Below are positions 1,647-32,000 of a stretch of 32,000 bases of DNA, one piece after another. The DNA is from a bacterium. Lineage in GTDB: Bacteria; Bacillota; Clostridia; Christensenellales; Aristaeellaceae. The notes under the pieces were generated by a model. The model did no database searches. It was given only the letters and a program-made list of their open reading frames with translations, and had not been told where the DNA came from. The DNA lies in assembly GCA_963624325.1 (NCBI GenBank), contig CAVFPH010000002.1:28401-60400 (forward strand). The letters are read 5' to 3'. The position numbers were made by a program, and so were the translations under genes. Position 1 is the stretch's first letter. Each line of letters begins with the position of its first letter.

Positions 1647-1723
1647 TGGTGGCTCCGATTGGATTCGAACCAATGACACTCCGGGTATGAACCGAATGCT
1701 CTAGCCAACTGAGCTACGGAGCC
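1647..1723 (-). tRNA. tRNA-Met (CAT), elongator type
   Basis: The reverse complement GGCTCCGTAGCTCAGTTGGCTAGAGCATTCGGTTCATACCCGGAGTGTCATTGGTTCGAATCCAATCGGAGCCACCA folds as a cloverleaf. It has anticodon loop TTCATAC, a GTTCGAATC T-loop and an encoded CCA. Confidence 0.9.
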
Positions 1724-1726
1724 AAA

Positions 1727-1803
<77 letters not shown>

Positions 1804-2050: not shown

Positions 2051-2794
2051 TCAGCACCCGAAGGCACAGTCGCTGAGACCGCCGATGATCAGAATAGCCA
2101 CAATTGCCGGCAGCACAACCGTCCAGATTGTCACATCGGCCTGCAGAAGCATCAGCAGCGCCACGATCAAGGCAAACAGAAAGGTTCTTACCAGTGTGCC
2201 GATCAGGGGCAGGATCACCTTGCTCATCACCAGCTTGGCGGCGACGATCGCAAGTGCCGCTTTAATTGCGATTGTTCCGATGGCAGCAGCAGACAAAAGC
2301 TGCGTCAATGCGCCGACAATATTCTGCGTGGTCTGATCCGCGATATTCTTTTCGATCAGTCCTTGAATTACCGTTGGGAAATACACCTGACGGTAAAGCA
2401 CCCAGGCAATCATAACAGACACAAGGTTGAGGGAGCAGTAGAGTGCGCCGCGCACAAGCGGCCCGGAATACAGCGGCTTGTAGAGCAAAAAGCCCAGAAT
2501 CAGAGATACCGGAATGGTAAGTACCGATACCATCAGAAGAGACAAAATTCCCTGCAGCAGATGATCCTCCAATGATTCCGTCACCACGGCAAGGTTAGGG
2601 GCAATCTGTCCGTGCAGAAGCTGAATCAGCCGCGCTGCCAAGGCAGAGCAGGTTCTAAGCAAGGGAAAATCCTGCAGGCTGACGGCGTCCAGCCATGTCT
2701 GCGGCATCACGCCCGCCAGCAGGGACGGGAACATGATCATGATAACCGCTGCGGCTGTCAAAACCGCAATCAGAATCCATCTTACCGCCTTCAC
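2051..2794 (-). CDS. hypothetical polytopic membrane protein
   Basis: A 247-aa ORF with a GTG start after GGGAGA. It has several long hydrophobic segments (ILIAVLTAAAVIMIMF, LLMVSVLTIPVSLILGFLL, LFALIVALLMLL, VVLPAIVAILIIGG). I do not recognise a family. Confidence 0.55.
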   Translation of the reverse strand: MKAVRWILIAVLTAAAVIMIMFPSLLAGVMPQTWLDAVSLQDFPLLRTCSALAARLIQLLHGQIAPNLAVVTESLEDHLLQGILSLLMVSVLTIPVSLILGFLLYKPLYSGPLVRGALYCSLNLVSVMIAWVLYRQVYFPTVIQGLIEKNIADQTTQNIVGALTQLLSAAAIGTIAIKAALAIVAAKLVMSKVILPLIGTLVRTFLFALIVALLMLLQADVTIWTVVLPAIVAILIIGGLSDCAFGC

Positions 2795-2900
2795 TCGCTC
2801 ACATTCTCCCTTCCGAAAATCATCTTATTATATGGCAGTATGCGCGGCATTGTCAAATGAGATGGTTTTCAGGTGATCAATTTGCGAATTATTCTCGATT

Positions 2901-3221
2901 TTACTCATCTTTTTCGGCAACGGCATGCAAAAAGATGCGCTTTTCAAAAGCACCGCGCCTGCGCGCTTTTTCTTCTTTTACATTTTGCAGTGCATCTGTT
3001 TCAAAGCCGCGTGCCCTGCAAATTGCCTCGATTACCTCCAGCAGATCCGCCATTTCCTCCATGCAGGGTGTTTGGCGATACTCCTGTGCCTCCTCCAGCA
3101 GTTTTTGTTCCAATGCATCCAAATACCGTTCATCGTTCAGCGTTTCGCAGAAGGGAATCTTTCCGCTGTCGCGGATGATCTCCGGAATGCGGTCCCGCAC
3201 CAGCTTGTCGTAAATCTTCAT
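2901..3221 (-). CDS. MazG-like / phosphoribosyl-ATP pyrophosphohydrolase-like all-alpha NTP pyrophosphatase
   Basis: This is ORF 2901..3308, trimmed to the ATG at 3221, which is preceded by GGAGG. MKIYDKLVRDRIPEII...EEAQEY...EEMADLLEVIEAI is typical of the small house-cleaning NTP-PPase family. Confidence 0.7.
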   Translation of the reverse strand: MKIYDKLVRDRIPEIIRDSGKIPFCETLNDERYLDALEQKLLEEAQEYRQTPCMEEMADLLEVIEAICRARGFETDALQNVKEEKARRRGAFEKRIFLHAVAEKDE

Positions 3222-13146: not shown

Positions 13147-13222
<76 letters not shown>

Positions 13223-23027: not shown

Positions 23028-23075
23028 AATTTTCATTCTATCGGTCGTATCATGCTTTCTGATGGAGGCTCATTT

Positions 23076-26000
23076 ATGCGTATTACCCGCAGATTCATCA
23101 CGATGCTGCTGTTTTTGCTGTCACTGTGCCTGCCCGTTTTTTGTGCCCGTGCTGCATCCGGGCAAATCAGCGGCTATGCCTGGCAGGCTCAAAGTGGGGA
23201 TAAAACCTATGATGCCGAGGATCACGCCCTGACGGGTGTGTCGGTCACGCTTTGCCGCGCGGAAGACGGGGCCGAAATCGCTCAGCAGACGGTAAACCGC
23301 AGCGGTGCATACGCCTTTATGGGCCTTGATGCGGGCAATTATTATCTGTCCGTCAAACTGCCGACGGGCTATCAGTTTATTGAGCCTTGCGACGGCGGAA
23401 GCATTATGCTTCCAGCAGACGGCGAAAGCAGCACCTCTGCAGTGTTTGCCCTTGCCGACAATCAGGTGATTGACAATGCGCACATCGGTGCATCCAAGTC
23501 TGTAGGTCATCTGCGGGTTTATGCCTTCGTGGATAAGAATGCGAACGGCGGGCGCAGCAATGCTGAGGATATGCTGCGCGGCGTCCAAACGGAATTGTAT
23601 TACCAGTATCAGGGCGAATGGGTCATGGTGGCCTCCTATACCACGGACAAGGACGGCTGCGCTACCTATTGGAGCATGACTCCCGGCACATATCGCATGC
23701 GTGTGGTGCTTCCCAATCCCTATATTATCGGTCCTCTGGGCGAAAAGATCAATGCCTGGTACAACTGTTTTCCGCCCTGTGACAGCAGCGACGGCTGGTC
23801 CGAACCCTTTGAAGTACCCAAAGGCAACAGCATCAACCTGGGGCTGGGTGCGGTAAGCACCGGCAGCTTAAGCGGCAGCCTTTGGTATGACGAAAATGCG
23901 GATGGCAAGCATGATGCCGCCGAACACGGGTACGCAGGCGCCGTCATTACGCTTGACAGTGATGAAGCCGGTGTTCATCGCTCGTTTGAAAGCACCGATG
24001 ATGGAACCTTTTCATTTGAGCGTTTGCTTGCAGGCACTTATACGCTGACCGTCACGCTGCCCGAAACCGCCATGTTTACCCTTCCCGGCGGGGATTCACT
24101 GTTTTCAAATGGCTATGCCTTCTGCCAGTCTGCCGATATCCCCATCACAACAGGCGAATCAACCGTCCTGCAATCCATCGGCATTATGGATGCCACCTCC
24201 CTTGAAATTCACTTTTATCATGATCTGAACGCAGACGGTACAATCGACGCGGATGATCTGCCGTTTTCCGGCGCAGCGGCCGAAATATTGGATGAGCAGG
24301 ATGCCGTGCTGCTTACGGCCGTCTCGGACGGTGACGGCATTGCTCGCTTCCCGGTAGTCCGCGGCGGCGATGTCCGCATACGCTGCACGCTTCCGGACGG
24401 CCAGGTATTTACCGTTGAAGGCGCGGAAAACGACTTTGTTTCGCTTGCCGCGCAAAGCACAATTACCCTGACGCACGATCTGGCGCATGGAGCTGCCGAT
24501 ACGCTTTATGCCGGCGTTACGCTGCCTGCGCAGATATCGGGCATGCTGTTCCTGGATCAAAATGTTTCCGGGGTCATGGACAATGGCGAGCAAGGGCTGG
24601 CCGATATCACAGTTCAGGCCGTCAATATGCGCGGGGAAGTTACAGCCGAAACCGTCACGGATGCATCCGGACGCTATCATTTTGACAGTCTGCTTCCCGC
24701 TTCCCATGCGATACGCTTTTTGCTGCAGGATGCCTATGTATTTGTGGAGCTTTCCGAGACGGGCGCAGAAACGGAAAATCACGTGATTCTGCAAACAGCC
24801 GAGTACGGCGAAACCGCCGAGGTCTCTCTTGCCCCCGGCCAGACAGCTGCGCATATCGATGGCGGCATTTTCAGAAGTGCAACGGTCTCCGGCCGCGTGC
24901 TGCTGGACTCGGGCATTCCCGCTCTGCCGCTGAGCGGCGGGCTTTCCGGCGTATGCGTCACCCTTTTGGATGAATATGGCGCCCCGGTTTCGGATACCAC
25001 CACCACCTATACCGACGAAAACGGCGATTATTATCTGAAAGGTGCGCTTCCCGGCACTTATTCTCTGGAATATACCCTGCCTGCGAATACAGCCTTCACC
25101 GTGCCAATGACGGAAAGCGAGGTTTGGTATTCCGAGCCGTTTACGCTTGAAGCCGCGGATGACCTGACCCAAAGTCCCCTCTATGCCGTTCCGACCGGCA
25201 GCCTGTCGGGCATTTTCTATCAGGATACCGATTTGAACGGCACCTACGATGCAGGCGAGCCTGAAATTGCCGACATCACGCTGACCGCCCACAACATGGA
25301 TTTGGATATCACCTACGAGGTTCGCTCCTTGGATAACGGGCAGTACATTTTTGATTCTCTGCGCCCCGGAGCCTATACCCTGTCCGTTGCATTGGAGGAT
25401 TCCATGTGCCTTGTAACGGACGCTTCCTCGCCCTTTACGGCCACGCCAAATTCCTCGGCGCGGGCGGAGCTGTCCATCGGAGCGGGAGATCATCAGCAAT
25501 ATCGAAATATTGCCGCTGCCTATACCGCCAGCCTTGCGGGAACCTTGTTTATGGACAGCGGGAACAACAATCATTTGGACGAGCAGGACGAGGGAGCCGC
25601 GCAGATTCCCGTTACGCTGAAGGCCGTAAACAATCCGCTGTCCTACACATTTCTGACCGATGAAAGCGGCATTTTCTCCCTGTCCGCCATTGCGCCGGGT
25701 GATTATCGGCTGTATGTTTCCCTGCCGACGGATTGCATCCCCGCCGACGGCAATCCTGCCGTACTGACGGACGGATTCTGGGTGTCAGATGTCCATATCG
25801 GAAGCGGCGATCAGGCTGATCTTACCTATGCCATATTGCGATATGCGCGTGCAGCGGGACATGTATGGAGCATGGACGGCTCCCTGACCGGCGTATCCAA
25901 CCGCGCAGTCACGCTCTACCGGGATGGAAATGCGCTGTCCACCGTCACCACAGATGCCGACGGTGCCTTTGAGTTTTTGCAGCTGAAACCCGGCCTTTAT

Positions 26001-26597
26001 TCCTTCTCCTGCGACCTGCCGGACGGGAATTACCGCTTTGCAAGATCGGTTGATACCGCAGTGCGCGTCAGCCTGATTACCGCTGACCAATCAACCATTA
26101 CCGATCAGATCGGTTATTCGGATGCGGTTGAAATCCCCATGGGGCAGGATGTTGACAGCTGTGATTTCGGCATCGGTGCACTTGGAAAGCTGGGCGACAC
26201 GGCCTGGCTGGACGAAAACGGGAACGGCATGCAGGATGAAGGCGAGCTGCCTGTCCCCGGCATTGAAATTGCCCTGTACCAGTACGGTGAGCTGATTGCC
26301 GAGGCCGCCACCGATCAGTATGGCCATTATCTTTTCATTGATCTGTACCCCGGCACATACACCGTGCAGGTGACCATGCCCAAGGAGCTTAAAACCACCA
26401 TTCATCAAACGGACTATCCCCTGGTTGCCAGCGTTCTGCCCGAGTCCGATGAGCTGACCGTGGAGGCAGCGGGCATCATTGTGCCCAGCAACGGCCGTAA
26501 TCTAAGCTGCGATTTCGGCTTCGTGCTGCGCACGGAGGGCAAATATCCGGAGGGCATGAGCACCATGCTATCCAGTATTTGGGATGGCGATTTCTGA
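23076..26597 (+). CDS. large secreted protein with about ten SdrD-B-like / Cna-B-type Ca-binding repeat domains
   Basis: This is ORF 23052..26597. The ATG at 23076 has GGAGG plus 8 nt. There is a signal peptide (MRITRRFITMLLFLLSLCLPVFCARAAS). Modules of about 110 aa recur with the pattern hSGxhahDxNxDGxxDxxExGhxGVxVxL...TDxxGxYxFxxLxPGxYxL (for example DENADGKHD, DLNADGTID, DENGNGMQD). I see no LPXTG, SLH or C-terminal TM segment. Confidence 0.8.
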   Translation: MRITRRFITMLLFLLSLCLPVFCARAASGQISGYAWQAQSGDKTYDAEDHALTGVSVTLCRAEDGAEIAQQTVNRSGAYAFMGLDAGNYYLSVKLPTGYQFIEPCDGGSIMLPADGESSTSAVFALADNQVIDNAHIGASKSVGHLRVYAFVDKNANGGRSNAEDMLRGVQTELYYQYQGEWVMVASYTTDKDGCATYWSMTPGTYRMRVVLPNPYIIGPLGEKINAWYNCFPPCDSSDGWSEPFEVPKGNSINLGLGAVSTGSLSGSLWYDENADGKHDAAEHGYAGAVITLDSDEAGVHRSFESTDDGTFSFERLLAGTYTLTVTLPETAMFTLPGGDSLFSNGYAFCQSADIPITTGESTVLQSIGIMDATSLEIHFYHDLNADGTIDADDLPFSGAAAEILDEQDAVLLTAVSDGDGIARFPVVRGGDVRIRCTLPDGQVFTVEGAENDFVSLAAQSTITLTHDLAHGAADTLYAGVTLPAQISGMLFLDQNVSGVMDNGEQGLADITVQAVNMRGEVTAETVTDASGRYHFDSLLPASHAIRFLLQDAYVFVELSETGAETENHVILQTAEYGETAEVSLAPGQTAAHIDGGIFRSATVSGRVLLDSGIPALPLSGGLSGVCVTLLDEYGAPVSDTTTTYTDENGDYYLKGALPGTYSLEYTLPANTAFTVPMTESEVWYSEPFTLEAADDLTQSPLYAVPTGSLSGIFYQDTDLNGTYDAGEPEIADITLTAHNMDLDITYEVRSLDNGQYIFDSLRPGAYTLSVALEDSMCLVTDASSPFTATPNSSARAELSIGAGDHQQYRNIAAAYTASLAGTLFMDSGNNNHLDEQDEGAAQIPVTLKAVNNPLSYTFLTDESGIFSLSAIAPGDYRLYVSLPTDCIPADGNPAVLTDGFWVSDVHIGSGDQADLTYAILRYARAAGHVWSMDGSLTGVSNRAVTLYRDGNALSTVTTDADGAFEFLQLKPGLYSFSCDLPDGNYRFARSVDTAVRVSLITADQSTITDQIGYSDAVEIPMGQDVDSCDFGIGALGKLGDTAWLDENGNGMQDEGELPVPGIEIALYQYGELIAEAATDQYGHYLFIDLYPGTYTVQVTMPKELKTTIHQTDYPLVASVLPESDELTVEAAGIIVPSNGRNLSCDFGFVLRTEGKYPEGMSTMLSSIWDGDF

Positions 26598-26654: not shown

Positions 26655-27668
26655 TTACAATCCCCAATAGATATTCATCAGCGTTGTCAGGGCCACATAA
26701 CCCAGATACAGCAGGATAATCGATTTATGGCTGAGGATCAGCGCCAGATATTCACGAAACGCTGCCGCCGGAACATAATACAATGCTGTCCGTCCGCCAA
26801 CGCCCTGCGCATCCATTTTCATTTCGCGTGCCAGAAAAGATGCACGAAGCACATGATAGTCGCTGGTGGCAATCAGAAACCGTGCATCGCCGCCATCTGC
26901 CTGCATAAGCTCCTTTGAAAATTTCAGATTTTCGCGCGTGGTGGTGGAGCGATCCTCTTTCAATATCTGTTCATTCGGGATCCCGCAGGACAGCAGATAG
27001 CGCTTCATTGCCTCTGCCTCGGATACAACCTCATTTTTTCCTTGCCCGCCCGAAACGATCAGCTTGGCCCGGCATCCGCCGCGGCGATACCACCGGACAG
27101 CGGCATCCAATCTGCTTTTCAAAAGCGGCGTAACCGTTCCGTCCTTTCGAATGGCACACCCGAGAACCGCAATATAGGGGCAGTCCAGCGGCTTCTTCAG
27201 CCGCTTGTATACCGGGGTGTACAGGAAGAATCCGCCCAGTGCCAAGGGAACGTACATCACCAGCTTCATCATAAACGTTGTACACAGCACCGCCATTTCG
27301 CTTCCGGAAACATAGCCAAAACAGTCCTGATACCAGATGCCGGCACCAAGCAGGGTCAGAAAGCCCCAGAAAACAGGCTGAATGTGCGTTTTTGAAAAGC
27401 CCTCGTGTTTCAGTACGATCACGCCATCCGCCAGCAAGGCAAGCCCTGCGCCGCAGAGGCTGAAGAGGATCCCATACACAAAGCACACGGCAACGGCGCT
27501 TCCGATCTTGGTATACATTACCGCATAGATAAGTGTCAGTGCGCCATAGAACAGCGACATTTCCAAAAGAAACCCGTTGATCAATCGGCGCGGTTCCCGC
27601 CGGATCAGCAAAAAAGCCAGCAGCAAAAAAACCGCTGCCGCGCTGCCGTAAATCAAAACATAGTTCAT
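26655..27668 (-). CDS. membrane protein with a C-terminal DUF218 (YdcF/SanA/ElyC-like) domain
   Basis: A 337-aa ORF. The N-terminal half has several TM segments. The C-terminal half reads IAVLGCAIRKDGTVTPLLKSRLDAAVRWY...LIVSGGQG...SEAEAMKRYL...EDRSTTTRENLKFS...ATSDYHVLRA, which is typical of DUF218. Confidence 0.75.
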   Translation of the reverse strand: MNYVLIYGSAAAVFLLLAFLLIRREPRRLINGFLLEMSLFYGALTLIYAVMYTKIGSAVAVCFVYGILFSLCGAGLALLADGVIVLKHEGFSKTHIQPVFWGFLTLLGAGIWYQDCFGYVSGSEMAVLCTTFMMKLVMYVPLALGGFFLYTPVYKRLKKPLDCPYIAVLGCAIRKDGTVTPLLKSRLDAAVRWYRRGGCRAKLIVSGGQGKNEVVSEAEAMKRYLLSCGIPNEQILKEDRSTTTRENLKFSKELMQADGGDARFLIATSDYHVLRASFLAREMKMDAQGVGGRTALYYVPAAAFREYLALILSHKSIILLYLGYVALTTLMNIYWGL

Positions 27669-27767: not shown

Positions 27768-28478
27768 TTATTTGCGGATTCGCTTGTCCAGCTTCACAGA
27801 AAGACGCGTACCGATGCTCTGGAAGAGCTGCACCAGCACAACCAGCACGATTACCGCCAGGATCATTACGGGATAGTTATATTTGTTATAGCCGTACATG
27901 ATGGCCAGCTTGCCCAGTCCGCCTGCGCCGATTGCGCCGCCCATGGCAGAATATCCCAGGATTGTGGTAACTGCAATGGCAGCGTTGTTAATCAGGGAAG
28001 GGACGCTTTCGGGCAGCATCACTTTGCAGATGATCTGCAAAGGGGAGGCACCCATGCTTTGCGCCATTTCGATGATGTTCGGGTTGACCTCACGCAGGCT
28101 GCTTTCCACCAGGCGTGCAACAAAGGGAAATGCTGCCACGACCAGCGGCACGATAGACGCAACCGAGCCGTAGGACTTGCCCACAATCAGGCGCGTCAGG
28201 GGGACTACCAGGATCATCAGGATCAAAAACGGCACAGAGCGCAGAAGATTAATCAGTACATTCAGCACCCGAAGCACCGCTTTGGGCAGCGGAAGGACGC
28301 CCTTCTCCTCGCCAACCACCAGCAATATGCCAAGCGGCAGCCCAAGCACCAGGGCAAAGGCAGTGGAGAGCACGGTTACATAGAAGGTTTCCCACAAATA
28401 ATAGAGCACGCCGTTCTTGGTCAGATCCAGCAGAAGCTCCAGCGCGGTTTCCCATTTTTTAGCCGTAAACCAGTTCAT
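27768..28478 (-). CDS. metI: methionine ABC transporter permease
   Basis: A 236-aa ORF whose ATG lies 1 nt after the metN stop. It has a MetI-type layout (LWETFYVTVLSTAFALVLGLPLGILL, EAA-like loop IEMAQSMGASPLQIICKVMLPE). Confidence 0.9.
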   Translation of the reverse strand: MNWFTAKKWETALELLLDLTKNGVLYYLWETFYVTVLSTAFALVLGLPLGILLVVGEEKGVLPLPKAVLRVLNVLINLLRSVPFLILMILVVPLTRLIVGKSYGSVASIVPLVVAAFPFVARLVESSLREVNPNIIEMAQSMGASPLQIICKVMLPESVPSLINNAAIAVTTILGYSAMGGAIGAGGLGKLAIMYGYNKYNYPVMILAVIVLVVLVQLFQSIGTRLSVKLDKRIRK

Positions 28479-28479
28479 C

Positions 28480-29478
<999 letters not shown>

Positions 29479-29502
29479 AGGGTTTCCTCCAATCACACAT
29501 GC

Positions 29503-29529
29503 GCACCGGCAGGAAACCCCTGCCGGTGC
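29503..29529 (-). other. intercistronic 11-bp stem-loop between metQ and metN
   Basis: GCACCGGCAGG, a 5-nt loop, CCTGCCGGTGC. There is no U-tract. Confidence 0.5.
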
Positions 29530-29551
29530 GGCACTTGGTGTCTGTTGTATT

Positions 29552-30397
29552 TTACTTGGTCAGGCCCAATACGTCAAGGGTAGTCTGACGGCCGCCGTAC
29601 AGGCCCATGGGCTCAACGTGTACAACGGATACGGAAACCAGCTTGGTGCCGTTCTCGGCATTGAAGTCGTCCAGGTAAGGCTGATGCTGGAAGTAGTTGG
29701 CATCGATTTCGCCGCTGTCCACAACCCGGTTGGGCTGTACATAGTCGGTGAATTCTACGATTTCCAGTTCAACGCCCTTGGCAGCCAGGATTTCCTGAGC
29801 AACCTTGAGGATTTCGGCATGGGGAGTGGGAGAAGCGGCAACGGTGATCTTTTCGCCCTTCAGCGCATCGTAATCGACAGTGGCATCATAGCCGTCGGTG
29901 GGATTTTCAATGGTGCTTACCACAGAACCGTCATAGGTTTCGGCGATAAAGTCGGCAACCTGCTGGCTTTCCAGCGCGGCAACCAGGGCCAGGATCTTGG
30001 CAGAATTCTCATTGCCTTCCTTGACGGCCAGGATGTTGCCGTAAGCGGAGTAAGAACCTTCGATCAGAAGGGAATCCTTTACGGGGTTCAGGCCCGCATT
30101 GATGGCGTAGTTGGAGTTGATCACGGCGTAGTCCAGGTCGGGCAGCTGAACGGGCAGCTGAGCGGCTTCAATCTCGATGACTTCAACATTGTTGGGGTTC
30201 TCTACGATATCACGGATGGTAGCCTGAATGCCGGCACCCTTAGCCAGCTTGATGATGCCGTTGGCTTCCAGCAGCAGAAGAGCACGGGCTTCGTTGGTCG
30301 TGTCATTGGGAACGCCGATGGTAATGGTGTCAGCCAGCGCGGCGGTGAAAGACAGGGACAGGGCCAGGGTCAGCAGGATGGCAAGCAGCTTTTTCAT
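29552..30397 (-). CDS. metQ: methionine-binding protein, MetQ/NlpA family
   Basis: A 281-aa ORF whose ATG follows AAAAGGAGAAACC. It has a signal peptide (MKKLLAILLTLALSLSFTAALA) and NlpA-family motifs (ITIGVPNDTTNEARALLLLE, VEFTDYVQPN, ANYFQH). It sits directly upstream of metN and metI. Confidence 0.9.
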   Translation of the reverse strand: MKKLLAILLTLALSLSFTAALADTITIGVPNDTTNEARALLLLEANGIIKLAKGAGIQATIRDIVENPNNVEVIEIEAAQLPVQLPDLDYAVINSNYAINAGLNPVKDSLLIEGSYSAYGNILAVKEGNENSAKILALVAALESQQVADFIAETYDGSVVSTIENPTDGYDATVDYDALKGEKITVAASPTPHAEILKVAQEILAAKGVELEIVEFTDYVQPNRVVDSGEIDANYFQHQPYLDDFNAENGTKLVSVSVVHVEPMGLYGGRQTTLDVLGLTK

Positions 30398-30530
30398 GAT
30401 GGTTTCTCCTTTTAATTTTGTTTTGTTGGGAAACGAAGCAAACGGGAATGCGTGTAAGGAGCGTCACATTCGTTTGCTGAAACGATTGGTGAGAATCAGG
30501 CAGCGGCACATGGGCGAATCCTCCTTTCGG

Positions 30531-30568
30531 AAATCAAAAACGGGGAAGCTCGATGAAGCTTCCCCGTT
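30531..30568 (-). terminator. intrinsic terminator (attenuator) inside the metQNI 5' leader
   Basis: The minus strand reads AACGGGGAAGCT (30568-30557), loop TCATCG, AGCTTCCCCGTT (30550-39), then TTTGATTT. It lies 40 nt after the leader-ORF stop and about 130 nt before the metQ ATG. Confidence 0.8.
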
Positions 30569-30631
30569 CGAAAACCGAATGGCACGATGAGCGCTCACAG
30601 GTGAACGCTTACCGTTTAGAAAGCACATCGA
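30550..30631 (-). promoter_or_regulatory. candidate antiterminator pairing of the Met attenuator
   Basis: UCGAUGUGCUUUC (30631-30619, codons 25-29 of the leader ORF) can pair with GGAAGCUUCAUCGA (30563-30550). That target is the distal part of the terminator 5' arm, the whole loop, and the first nt of the 3' arm. The pairing is 6 bp, a 1x2 internal loop, then 6 bp including one G-U. It is mutually exclusive with the terminator. Confidence 0.5.
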
Positions 30632-30704
30632 TGAAGGCACAGCGACGCATGCACATGTACATGTACATCTGCATCATCATGTTGTCCATCGCCATACGCT
30701 TCAT
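30609..30704 (-). CDS. Met-rich leader peptide (31 aa) of the metQNI operon
   Basis: The minus strand reads AAAGGAG, 9 nt, then ATG AAG CGT ATG GCG ATG GAC AAC ATG ATG ATG CAG ATG TAC ATG TAC ATG TGC ATG CGT CGC TGT GCC TTC ATC GAT GTG CTT TCT AAA CGG TAA. This translates to MKRMAMDNMMMQMYMYMCMRRCAFIDVLSKR, with 10 AUG in 31 codons. The ORF lies between a promoter and a terminator, and is too short for the ORF track. Confidence 0.6.
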   Translation of the reverse strand: MKRMAMDNMMMQMYMYMCMRRCAFIDVLSKR

Positions 30705-30747
30705 AACGGTGCGCTCCTTTCCTCAGTGATCAACCGTTTATGCGGGT

Positions 30748-30776
30748 ACTATACCAGCCCGGAAAAGAATTGTCAA
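30748..30776 (-). promoter_or_regulatory. sigma-A promoter (extended -10) of the Met leader/metQNI transcript
   Basis: On the minus strand, TTGACA (30776-30771), a 17-nt spacer, then TGgTATAGT (-10 at 30753-30748). It starts 43 nt downstream of the serS stop. Confidence 0.6.
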
Positions 30777-30819
30777 GGGGTTATTTTGTACTTCTGTTGT
30801 ACTTGCATAATATGGGCAA

Positions 30820-32000
30820 TTACTTTCCGATTACGTCCACGCCCATGTACTTGCGCAGAACTTCGGGCACGGTAACGCTGCCGTCGCTGTTCTGGTAGTT
30901 TTCCAGAATCGCCGCCACGGTACGGCCTACAGCCACACCGGAGCCGTTGAGCGTATGGCACAGCTGCGGCTTGGACTTGGGATCCTCGCGGTAGCGGATG
31001 CCTGCACGGCGTGCCTGGAAATCTTCGCAGTTGGAGCAGGAGCTGATCTCCACATAGCGGTTATAGGAGGGCATCCACACTTCGATATCATAGCACTTGG
31101 CGGCAGAGAAGCCCATATCGCCCGAGCACAGCGCCACAACGCGGTAGGGCAAGCCCAGCAGCTGCAGCACCTTTTCGGCCTGGCGGGTCATGGATTCCAG
31201 CTCCTCATAGCTCTGCTCGGGCTTGGTAATCTTGACCATTTCGACCTTGTTGAACTGGTGCTGACGGATCAGACCGCGGGTATCGCGGCCGGCGCTGCCA
31301 GCCTCCTTGCGGAAGCACGCGCTGTAAGCGCAGTGACGGATCGGCAGATCCTTGCCGTCCAGAATCATATCGCGGTACAGGTTTGTCACGGGTACCTCAG
31401 CCGTGGGAATCAGGAAGGTATCCTGATCCAGCTTATAGGCATCCTCTTCAAACTTGGGCAGCTGGCCCGTACCGGTCATGGTGCTGCGGGTAACCATATA
31501 GGGAGGCAGAACCTCAACATAGCCGTCCGCCGCATGCGTATCCATAAAGAAGTTAATCACCGCGCGTTCCAGCCGGGCACCCAAACCGCGATACACGGTG
31601 AAGCGGGCACCGCTGATTTTGGCAGCAGCATCGAAATCCAGAATATTCAGGTCGGTGCCGATATCCCAGTGCGCCTTGGGCTCCCACTCAAAGTGACGCG
31701 GCTCGCCCCAGCGGCGCTGCTCCACATTTTCACTGTCGTCCTTGCCGACGGGAGTACCGGCCGACGGATAGTTGGGCAGGCGCATAACGAAATCGTTGAT
31801 GTACTCCTCAATTTCCTTCACTTGCGCATCCAGTGCCGTTACCTGATCGCCCAATGCGCGCATTTCATCCATGATCGGCTGTGCATCGCCGCCCTCACGC
31901 TTGATCTGCGCAATGCGCTTGGACTCATCATTGCGGCGTGCCTTCAGCGTTTCCACTTGGCTGAGCAGCGCGCGGCGCTCTTCTTCCTTTTTCAGGAATT
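30820..32000 (-). CDS. serS: seryl-tRNA synthetase, N-terminus outside the window
   Basis: This is ORF 30820..31956, and the frame stays open to the window edge (...[22 protein letters not shown]...). It has class II aaRS motifs ([43 protein letters not shown]). Confidence 0.9.

Follow-up and report, generated by a model that had tools for sequence, protein, structure and literature searches.

A candidate methionine-codon leader-peptide attenuator upstream of the metQNI importer operon in gut Clostridia

In a 32-kb stretch of contig CAVFPH010000002.1 (the window), the spacer between serS and metQ holds, on the minus strand, a leader that is likely to act as a ribosome-mediated (leader-peptide) transcription attenuator controlling the methionine ABC importer operon metQ-metN-metI (27768-30397, minus strand), the presumed regulated unit according to NCBIfam assignments. 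A promoter, a short open reading frame (ORF) with a dense run of AUG codons and an intrinsic terminator follow one another, and the predicted alternative pairings of the RNA covary between related leaders. The arrangement is widespread in gut Clostridia. A first-pass annotation of this DNA had proposed a Met-codon attenuator operated by the ribosome, and the in silico checks reported below support that reading; the cysteine enrichment of the codon run, the pairing strand at the ribosome binding site (RBS) and the hairpin formed by the run itself were absent from it.

Architecture of the leader upstream of metQ

Transcription of the leader, all elements of which lie on the minus strand, would start from a sigma-70-type promoter (30748-30776) consisting of TTGACA (30776-30771), a 17-nt spacer and a TG-extended TATAGT (30753-30748). 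This promoter, already recognized in the first-pass annotation, agrees with the consensus at 11 of 12 positions, lies 43 nt 5' of the leader ORF and is the sole promoter-like site in 30200-31000. The position of the -10 element gives an estimated 5' untranslated region (UTR) of roughly 37 nt. A separate promoter 3' of the terminator, which had been considered as a possible source of metQ transcription, was not found in the scan of 30200-31000. A Shine-Dalgarno (SD) sequence, AAAGGAG (30720-30714), stands 9 nt before the ATG at 30704, from which an ORF of 31 codons (30704-30609) extends to a TAA stop (30611-30609) and encodes the peptide MKRMAMDNMMMQMYMYMCMRRCAFIDVLSKR. Ten of the codons are AUG, and nine of these fall within codons 4-19, as had been described; this putative regulatory run (30648-30695) also contains one UGC and is densest in AUG at codons 9-19 (30680-30648). 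A second Cys codon, codon 22 (30641-30639), lies past the run. The clustering of ATG is far beyond chance: compared with nine ATG in 16 codons, the next best count in any frame of the window is five, and in 200 second-order Markov simulations the count reached six at most.

Behind the ORF, an intrinsic terminator (regions 3 and 4, 30531-30569) reads GAACGGGGAAGCUU-CAUC-GAGCUUCCCCGUUU followed by UUGAUUU. The terminator with its U-tract had been noticed before and is indeed present, the U-tract reaching 30531 and the metQ start following 133 nt further on; its stem (30569-30538), previously given as 12 bp, comprises 14 bp, 7 of them G-C. Region 2, the predicted 5' strand of an antiterminator (30617-30636; CUUCAUCGAUGUGCUUUCUA), is contained in roughly the last seven ORF codons and in the window ends at the stop codon. 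Its conserved core, GCUUUCU/C, forms base pairs with GGAAGC/GGAAGG, the core of the terminator 5' arm; the partners of the codons 5' of the GCUUUCC core are the terminator loop and the beginning of the 3' arm. The corresponding 3' strand, region 3 in its antiterminator role (30550-30563), combines GGAAGC of the terminator 5' arm with CAUCGA, which covers the loop and extends into the first nucleotides of the 3' arm. An intervening hairpin that includes the stop codon (30584-30615; ACGGU-A-AGCGUUCA-CCUG-UGAGCGCU-C-AUCGU) is nested in the antiterminator helix, and the spacer between stop and terminator has a folding energy of -17.9 kcal/mol (z = -3.6). Most related leaders carry a hairpin of different sequence at this place (median -10.5 kcal/mol; z < -1.5 in 13/27), which may serve as a pause or scaffold hairpin. 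Region 1, the predicted anti-antiterminator strand (30698-30723; AGGAAAGGAGCGCACCGUUAUGAAGC), comprises the SD with the spacer behind it, the start codon (30704-30702) and the codons that follow, and its duplex with region 2 has an energy of -16.4 kcal/mol in the window. Judged by its sequence, the element is a complete four-segment attenuator in which the leader's own RBS would act as the anti-antiterminator.

According to the mechanism that we propose, a strong constitutive promoter would yield a leader RNA with four interacting segments, and a ribosome would load on the SD once this has been transcribed. If Met-tRNA is plentiful, the ribosome would cross the 8-10 AUG codons and region 2 and reach the stop just behind it; region 2 would be covered as region 3 emerges, the 3:4 helix would form, and transcription would terminate before metQ. 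If Met-tRNA (or Cys-tRNA) is scarce, the ribosome would stall within the run with region 2 still about 17 nt away, and would sit between regions 1 and 2 and hold them apart. Region 2 would then pair with region 3 around the nested hairpin, the terminator would be blocked, and the importer genes would be transcribed. With no ribosome on the leader, 1:2 and 3:4 would form together, resulting in termination and a closed RBS.

A further small ORF (30464-30511, minus strand) with a strong SD (AGGAGG) and an ATG is located right 3' of the leader terminator (MCRCLILTNRFSKRM). It was rejected as a second leader: its stop is lost in the sister strain L087, no counterpart exists elsewhere, and most related leaders leave no space for an ORF of this kind. 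This ORF is probably non-functional.

Distribution and covariation among related leaders

We compared 80 loci with MetQ relatives of 62-78% identity, drawn from one-genome-per-species contigs of Oscillospiraceae, Lachnospiraceae and metagenome-assembled genomes of other Clostridia. In 41 of the 80, a short ORF with at least five Met in 16 codons occurs at most 800 nt upstream of metQ. The combination of short ORF, AUG cluster and terminator is thus conserved while the rest of the peptide drifts, a pattern that the first-pass annotation had proposed to look for. The leader ORFs comprise 28-46 codons with 5-10 clustered AUG. When the window is included, SD and ATG are properly spaced in about 40 of 42 leaders, and a strong terminator begins 18-44 nt past the leader stop in essentially all 42. 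A sigma-70-type promoter (at least 9/12 consensus positions) was detected 27-59 nt upstream of the ORF start in 42/42 leaders, 40 of them with a perfect TTGACA; only 2/42 control segments from inside metQ scored equally. Whole-locus scans of both strands placed the short Met-rich ORFs exclusively directly upstream of metQ on the sense strand, the remaining matches being antisense frames of long genes.

The peptides conform to the consensus MKxxxxxxMMMMxMCMxxMCMxxxAxxxxxLSxxx, in which the nearly invariant columns are Met only. All AUG codons of the run share one frame, and length variants are in-frame. One relative of the window's leader peptide (P0216) differs by an in-frame deletion of two codons (ATGTAC), and three rare variants (P0002, P0005 and P0007) carry single changes of Met to Thr, Leu or Ile; the (ATGTAC)/(ATGTGC) repeats probably evolve by frame-keeping slippage. 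The exact peptide of the window is present in public protein collections as 'hypothetical protein'. A profile search yielded 166 relatives at E <= 0.01 (31-71 amino acids (aa)), all unnamed and one of them found on at least 1000 contigs, and one family member occurs in 1605 blocks of an assembly collection. An exhaustive HMMER search of 1.84 billion representatives returned 86 clusters at 50% identity (29-95 aa). In all four genomic contexts looked up, the gene order was short ORF, Lipoprotein_9, ABC_tran+NIL and BPD_transp_1. The upstream neighbours were of three kinds (serS, MatE and alanine racemase); as these differ while the downstream genes remain constant, the short ORF is part of the transporter operon.

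About 350 nt upstream of metQ in locus L038 (locus position 3001), we observed a leader relative, MGKDTAAAARMCMCRSSLHVLSVIK, with only three Met codons and the 'VLS' antiterminator codons kept, apparently a decayed form. A context-free scan of metagenome contigs for ATGATGATGATGNNNATGNNNATG, aimed at leaders before other genes, gave only (ATG)n microsatellites of environmental or eukaryotic origin among the matches listed.

The spacings within the family fit ribosome footprints. In 27 leaders, the run contains a median of 8 AUG codons, the last of which precedes region 2 by a median of 17 nt (15 nt in the window); region 2 in turn ends a median of 5 nt before the stop, and the terminator follows the stop at a median distance of 29 nt. 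A ribosome covers roughly 12 nt 3' of its A site, and the 17-nt gap would therefore put region 2 just past the leading edge of a ribosome stalled in the run. A stop codon 0-20 nt past the region-2 core was present in the ORF frame of 24/27 leaders, as opposed to 9/27 and 7/27 in the other two frames.

For structure prediction, all 5' sequence up to 12 nt beyond the last AUG of the run was masked and the nascent RNA was folded to the terminator loop. Under this rule the 2:3 antiterminator forms in nearly every leader, in the window between 30636-30617 and 30563-30550, consistent with the alternation of folds expected in the first-pass annotation for a ribosome positioned at the Met run. Confusing long-range pairs resulted when the complete leader was folded with a mask of 30 nt for the ribosome. 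The pairing of 30631-30619 with 30563-30550 that had originally been put forward exists within this helix and, moreover, covaries.

Covariation was assessed by an alignment-free test in which the duplex energies of each leader's own segments were compared with those of cross-leader combinations; the resulting permutation p values ignore phylogenetic relatedness. Among 36 non-redundant leaders, the duplex of the 3' segment of the ORF with the terminator arm had -16.4 kcal/mol for own and -12.9 kcal/mol for cross combinations (p = 5e-5). When the test was limited to the non-conserved outer helix, using one representative per distinct sequence (19 leaders), the values were -8.0 and -4.2 kcal/mol (p = 1e-5), and the own partner ranked among the top four of 19 in 15 cases. 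The outer helix occurs in at least 12 different sequences, for example UCGAUG/CAUCGA, UUCAAAUG/CAUUUGAA, CAAAAAAA/UUUUUUUG, GAUAUGC/GCAUAUC, UCAAAG/CUUUGA and GGUCAUUU/AAAUGACC. The 1:2 pairing covaries as well: with region 1 limited to -25..+12 around the start codon, 19 non-redundant leaders showed -15.3 kcal/mol for own and -11.4 kcal/mol for cross duplexes (p = 2e-5), and a separate test gave p = 5e-5. Compensatory examples are GGAAAGCAAC/GUUGCUUUCC (L002), GGAAAGCUGA/UCAGCUUUCC, AGAAAGCAU/AUGCUUUCU and GGAGAGC/GCUCUCC (L049). Strains of the window's species show almost no variation in the leader, and the few changes keep or improve pairing; one of them, UCU to UCC, converts a U-G pair of the antiterminator to C-G.

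Several observations weigh against the attenuator reading. The p values are uncorrected for phylogeny, despite which the many distinct helices argue for many independent compensatory events. A count of column pairs in a MAFFT alignment of mini-leaders, from which five leaders with ambiguous sequence anchors were omitted, found 59% of cells paired, not above slid controls, with the subfamilies out of register. The divergent leaders L021, L046/74/76 and L053 showed no clear antiterminator under the masking rule, and 32 of the 80 metQ relatives, mostly with short intergenic gaps, have neither a Met leader nor a T-box. The codon pattern of the run appears to be partly driven by RNA structure, as detailed in the next section, so that not every run codon needs to be a sensor codon. 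Finally, methionine also initiates the leader peptide, and severe starvation might abolish ribosome loading and lead to termination (1:2 plus 3:4) instead of read-through. This last point raises the testable question of how an attenuator can function when the sensed amino acid also initiates its leader, to which the pairing of the antiterminator strand with the RBS suggests an answer.

Codon run and rival explanations

Across the family the run consists of 54.5% Met and 14% Cys codons. It is self-complementary, with a predicted hairpin of -12.0 kcal/mol (z = -2.1) in the window and a median of -11.5 kcal/mol in the family (z < -1.5 in 21/27 leaders). In the pattern M-x-M, Cys accounts for 44 of the 118 x codons, encoded by UGC 43 times and by UGU once, compared with 41:22 elsewhere in the leaders, and 59% of all x codons render AUG-NNN-AU self-complementary. 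The Cys codons might accordingly be purely a by-product of the palindrome. The UGC bias partly supports this explanation, which fails in two respects: UGC (43) is far more frequent than the equally or more pairing-competent CGC (7), UAC (10), GCC (2), GUC (1) and AUC (0), and 37 further Cys codons lie past the run. Co-sensing of cysteine is therefore plausible. We infer with good confidence that the leader reports the supply of charged tRNA-Met, and it probably reports that of tRNA-Cys as well.

A more tentative extension, which we rate as possible rather than probable, is a combined sulfur-amino-acid sensor that would read AUG elongation (Met-tRNA), UGC elongation (Cys-tRNA) and initiation (fMet-tRNA) in one RNA. 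Initiation enters as an input because region 1 coincides with the leader's own SD and start codon. Such a sensor would solve the problem of a sensed amino acid that also starts the sensor peptide, and would represent a design distinct from every textbook attenuator, present in abundant human-gut Clostridia.

Three other explanations of the leader were weighed. Termination might be coupled to translation without Met-tRNA being sensed, either through general translation capacity or through ligand-triggered arrest of the nascent peptide by free Met or S-adenosylmethionine (SAM), for which TnaC, SpeFL and plant CGS1 are models. The architecture taken alone would indicate only that termination depends on where the ribosome is, a Met-rich nascent chain might in principle be active within the exit tunnel, and a region 1 identical with the RBS would make the switch sensitive to the initiation rate. 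We consider this explanation very unlikely, since all that is nearly invariant in the peptide is how many AUG codons there are and how they cluster, and not a defined arrest motif, since ligand arrest would turn the importer on at high Met or SAM, the wrong sign for uptake, and since sister lineages have a tRNA-Met-sensing T-box at the same place.

The AUG stretch could also be an RNA element bound by a trans factor, such as a TRAP-like protein recognizing AUG triplets, or part of a SAM or Met aptamer, the ORF being incidental. TRAP in Bacillus acts on triplet repeats, and the repeated triplets are spaced 0 or 3 nt here; the hairpin of the run is more stable than shuffled sequences, and the third position of x in M-x-M is almost always C, pointing to a constraint at the RNA level. 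Against this stand the SD and ATG that are well spaced in about 40/42 leaders, the single frame of the AUG codons, the in-frame insertions and deletions and the frame-specific placement of the stop. In addition, region 1 is the RBS itself, and about 17 nt separate the run from the antiterminator strand, which a factor bound to the run would therefore not mask. No complex conserved structure or Rfam match accompanies the run, and the sequence between the AUG codons drifts freely. An RNA element of this type is, in our estimate, even less probable than a translation-coupled switch that ignores Met-tRNA. Least probable of all is a functional Met/Cys-rich micro-protein (a metal or redox peptide or a partner of MetNI) with a terminator that merely sets stoichiometry: the peptide family is conserved and widespread, its C-terminal 'LS' motif is conserved and MxM and CxxC-like patterns resemble metal-binding motifs, but the peptide is unconserved outside its Met/Cys positions and varies from 28 to 46 residues, the shared '(V/A)LS' (codons CUU UCx) is explained by the RNA core GCUUUCC pairing with the terminator arm and with the SD, and covarying alternative structures over the coding region with a strong terminator directly behind would be unexpected for a micro-protein gene.

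Known regulatory systems and genomic neighbourhood

The ribosome-mediated Met-codon attenuator that we favour would be set apart from the RNA elements known for methionine genes. Control of those genes is generally ascribed to MetJ/MetR, to S-box (SAM-I) and other SAM riboswitches or to T-boxes, and the amino acids sensed by canonical leader peptides are Trp, His, Phe, Leu, Thr and Ile/Val, to which Cys candidates have been added recently. The absence of an S-box or T-box, noted in the first pass, held in our Rfam scans. In 30300-30900, no S-box, T-box, leader-peptide or other family matched at E <= 10 apart from chance hits to the terminator hairpin, the best of which (E = 0.62) covers the terminator only. 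At the same threshold, none of the SAM aptamer models (SAM-I/S-box, II, III, IV, V, VI and SAM-SAH) matched the leader, and none of the Rfam leader families (Trp, His, Leu, Thr, Phe and Lactococcus leu/phe) matched within this interval. Likewise, no Rfam element reached the gathering threshold in the leaders of 21 Met-leader loci (the window and 20 homologous loci), and the idea that leaders with long spacers might contain a tandem riboswitch was rejected for lack of Rfam matches in the 20 loci. A T-box (RF00230) was detected at the same position in 6 of 39 loci that lack the Met ORF, in all six with a GAA-N-AUG-G specifier loop; as the model detects these sister T-boxes, the negative result for the window's leader is meaningful. 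In L048, a TwoAYGGAY RNA (2718-2882, minus strand; 103 bits) was observed on the opposite strand between the Met T-box and metQ.

Met T-boxes upstream of metQ/metNPQ in Firmicutes occupy the same position, precede the same genes and have the same output, antitermination at uncharged tRNA-Met. They bind the uncharged tRNA by Stem I and the T-box sequence without translation, whereas the window's leader lacks both and would use the ribosome as reader. S-box and other SAM riboswitches similarly attenuate methionine and sulfur genes in Firmicutes, but sense SAM by an aptamer, while the supply of aminoacyl-tRNA is proposed as the signal here.

In its predicted structure, the element has every structural feature that defines the mechanistic class of trpL and hisL. 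Like the classical attenuators trpL, hisL, pheL, leuL, thrL and ilvL of Proteobacteria, it has a promoter-proximal short ORF with clustered cognate codons, four segments with mutually exclusive pairings (1:2, 2:3 and 3:4) and a terminator before the first structural gene, the fold being picked by ribosome position. It differs in that Met (and possibly Cys) would be sensed, that an importer and not a biosynthetic operon would be controlled and that it occurs in Clostridia. Further differences are the location of region 2 inside the ORF before the stop, an additional hairpin nested within the antiterminator and the folding of the codon run into a hairpin of its own. In contrast to trpL, region 1 corresponds to the leader's own SD and start codon and not to the regulatory codons. 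The classical leaders have no sequence or covariance-model similarity to the leader of the window.

Leader ORFs with Cys codons in mycobacteria, cys operons of Actinobacteria (PMC1262725) and Rhodobacterales (the cysS uORFC-8-2 motif, PMC8632094) are likewise short upstream ORFs with codons for a sulfur amino acid, at which ribosome stalling has been proposed or shown to couple the expression of the genes behind them to amino-acid supply. The runs of all these ORFs contain Cys codons only. The nearest sulfur-amino-acid analogue is the group of mycobacterial polycysteine ORFs, which are leaderless, have their consecutive Cys codons close to the stop, possess no intrinsic terminator and regulate cysteine biosynthesis (bioRxiv 10.1101/834739, PMC1262725). 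The present leader, unlike these, has a 5' UTR with an SD, an AUG-dominated run, a covarying antiterminator and an intrinsic terminator. In Actinobacteria, Seliverstov et al. (2005) described leaders for Trp, Cys and Leu but explicitly none for methionine (PMC1262725), and Naville and Gautheret (2010) reported His leaders in Bacilli, including those of Bacillus hisS/hisZ (PMC2965389). Upstream ORFs (uORFs) of Cys (cysS), Phe (aroF) and Ile/Leu/Val specificity emerged from the surveys of the Breaker laboratory (PMC5737381, PMC8632094, PMC11109978), and further candidates are the uORFs of Corynebacterium ilvB (PMC10272879) and Acholeplasma aroF (PMC8632094). These Gram-positive candidates (Bacillus his, Corynebacterium ilvB and Acholeplasma aroF) share ribosome-mediated attenuation, which replaces T-boxes in some lineages, but have other specificities, none of them Met, and are unrelated in sequence to the window's leader.

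A Met-codon leader-peptide attenuator was not found in the full-text literature, the subscription-only literature lying outside the search; the first-pass annotation had likewise known of none. Its term 'new regulatory class' is too strong, and the leader is better described as a probable case of classical leader-peptide attenuation with a specificity not described before and a distinctive region 1. As such, a conserved Met-codon leader would extend the range of leader-peptide attenuation and would show Clostridia using classical attenuation where their relatives use a Met T-box, a side-by-side replacement of one sensor by another. Existing annotations call the leader ORFs 'hypothetical protein' or miss them altogether, and the motif is not in Rfam; a model of it would improve the annotation of genomes from gut microbiomes and the reading of metatranscriptomes.

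The operon downstream of the leader comprises metQ (29552-30397, minus strand; ATG at 30397), assigned by NCBIfam to the MetQ/NlpA family of binding lipoproteins, metN (28480-29496, minus strand; TIGR02314, E = 7e-108), which carries a NIL domain, and metI (27768-28478, minus strand), which matches NF008049 at its cutoff. In the window's species, metI is followed on the same strand by a gene for a DUF218/ElyC-like membrane protein (26655-27668, minus strand), which is outside the unit of short ORF and metQNI conserved in other lineages. On the other side of the leader, serS (30820-31956, minus strand) is cut by the window end; its NCBIfam match begins at model position 47, and serS homologues have 421 aa. 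In the interval from the serS stop to the leader promoter no terminator was detected, and it is possible that transcription from serS runs on into the leader. The sole Rfam matches in the window at gathering thresholds are three tRNA genes (1650-1803, minus strand, and 13147-13219, plus strand). An ORF of 1181 aa on the plus strand (23052-26597) has a signal-peptide-like N-terminus and many repeat units of about 90 aa with recurring 'GxYxF/L' motifs, and is probably a surface-protein gene.

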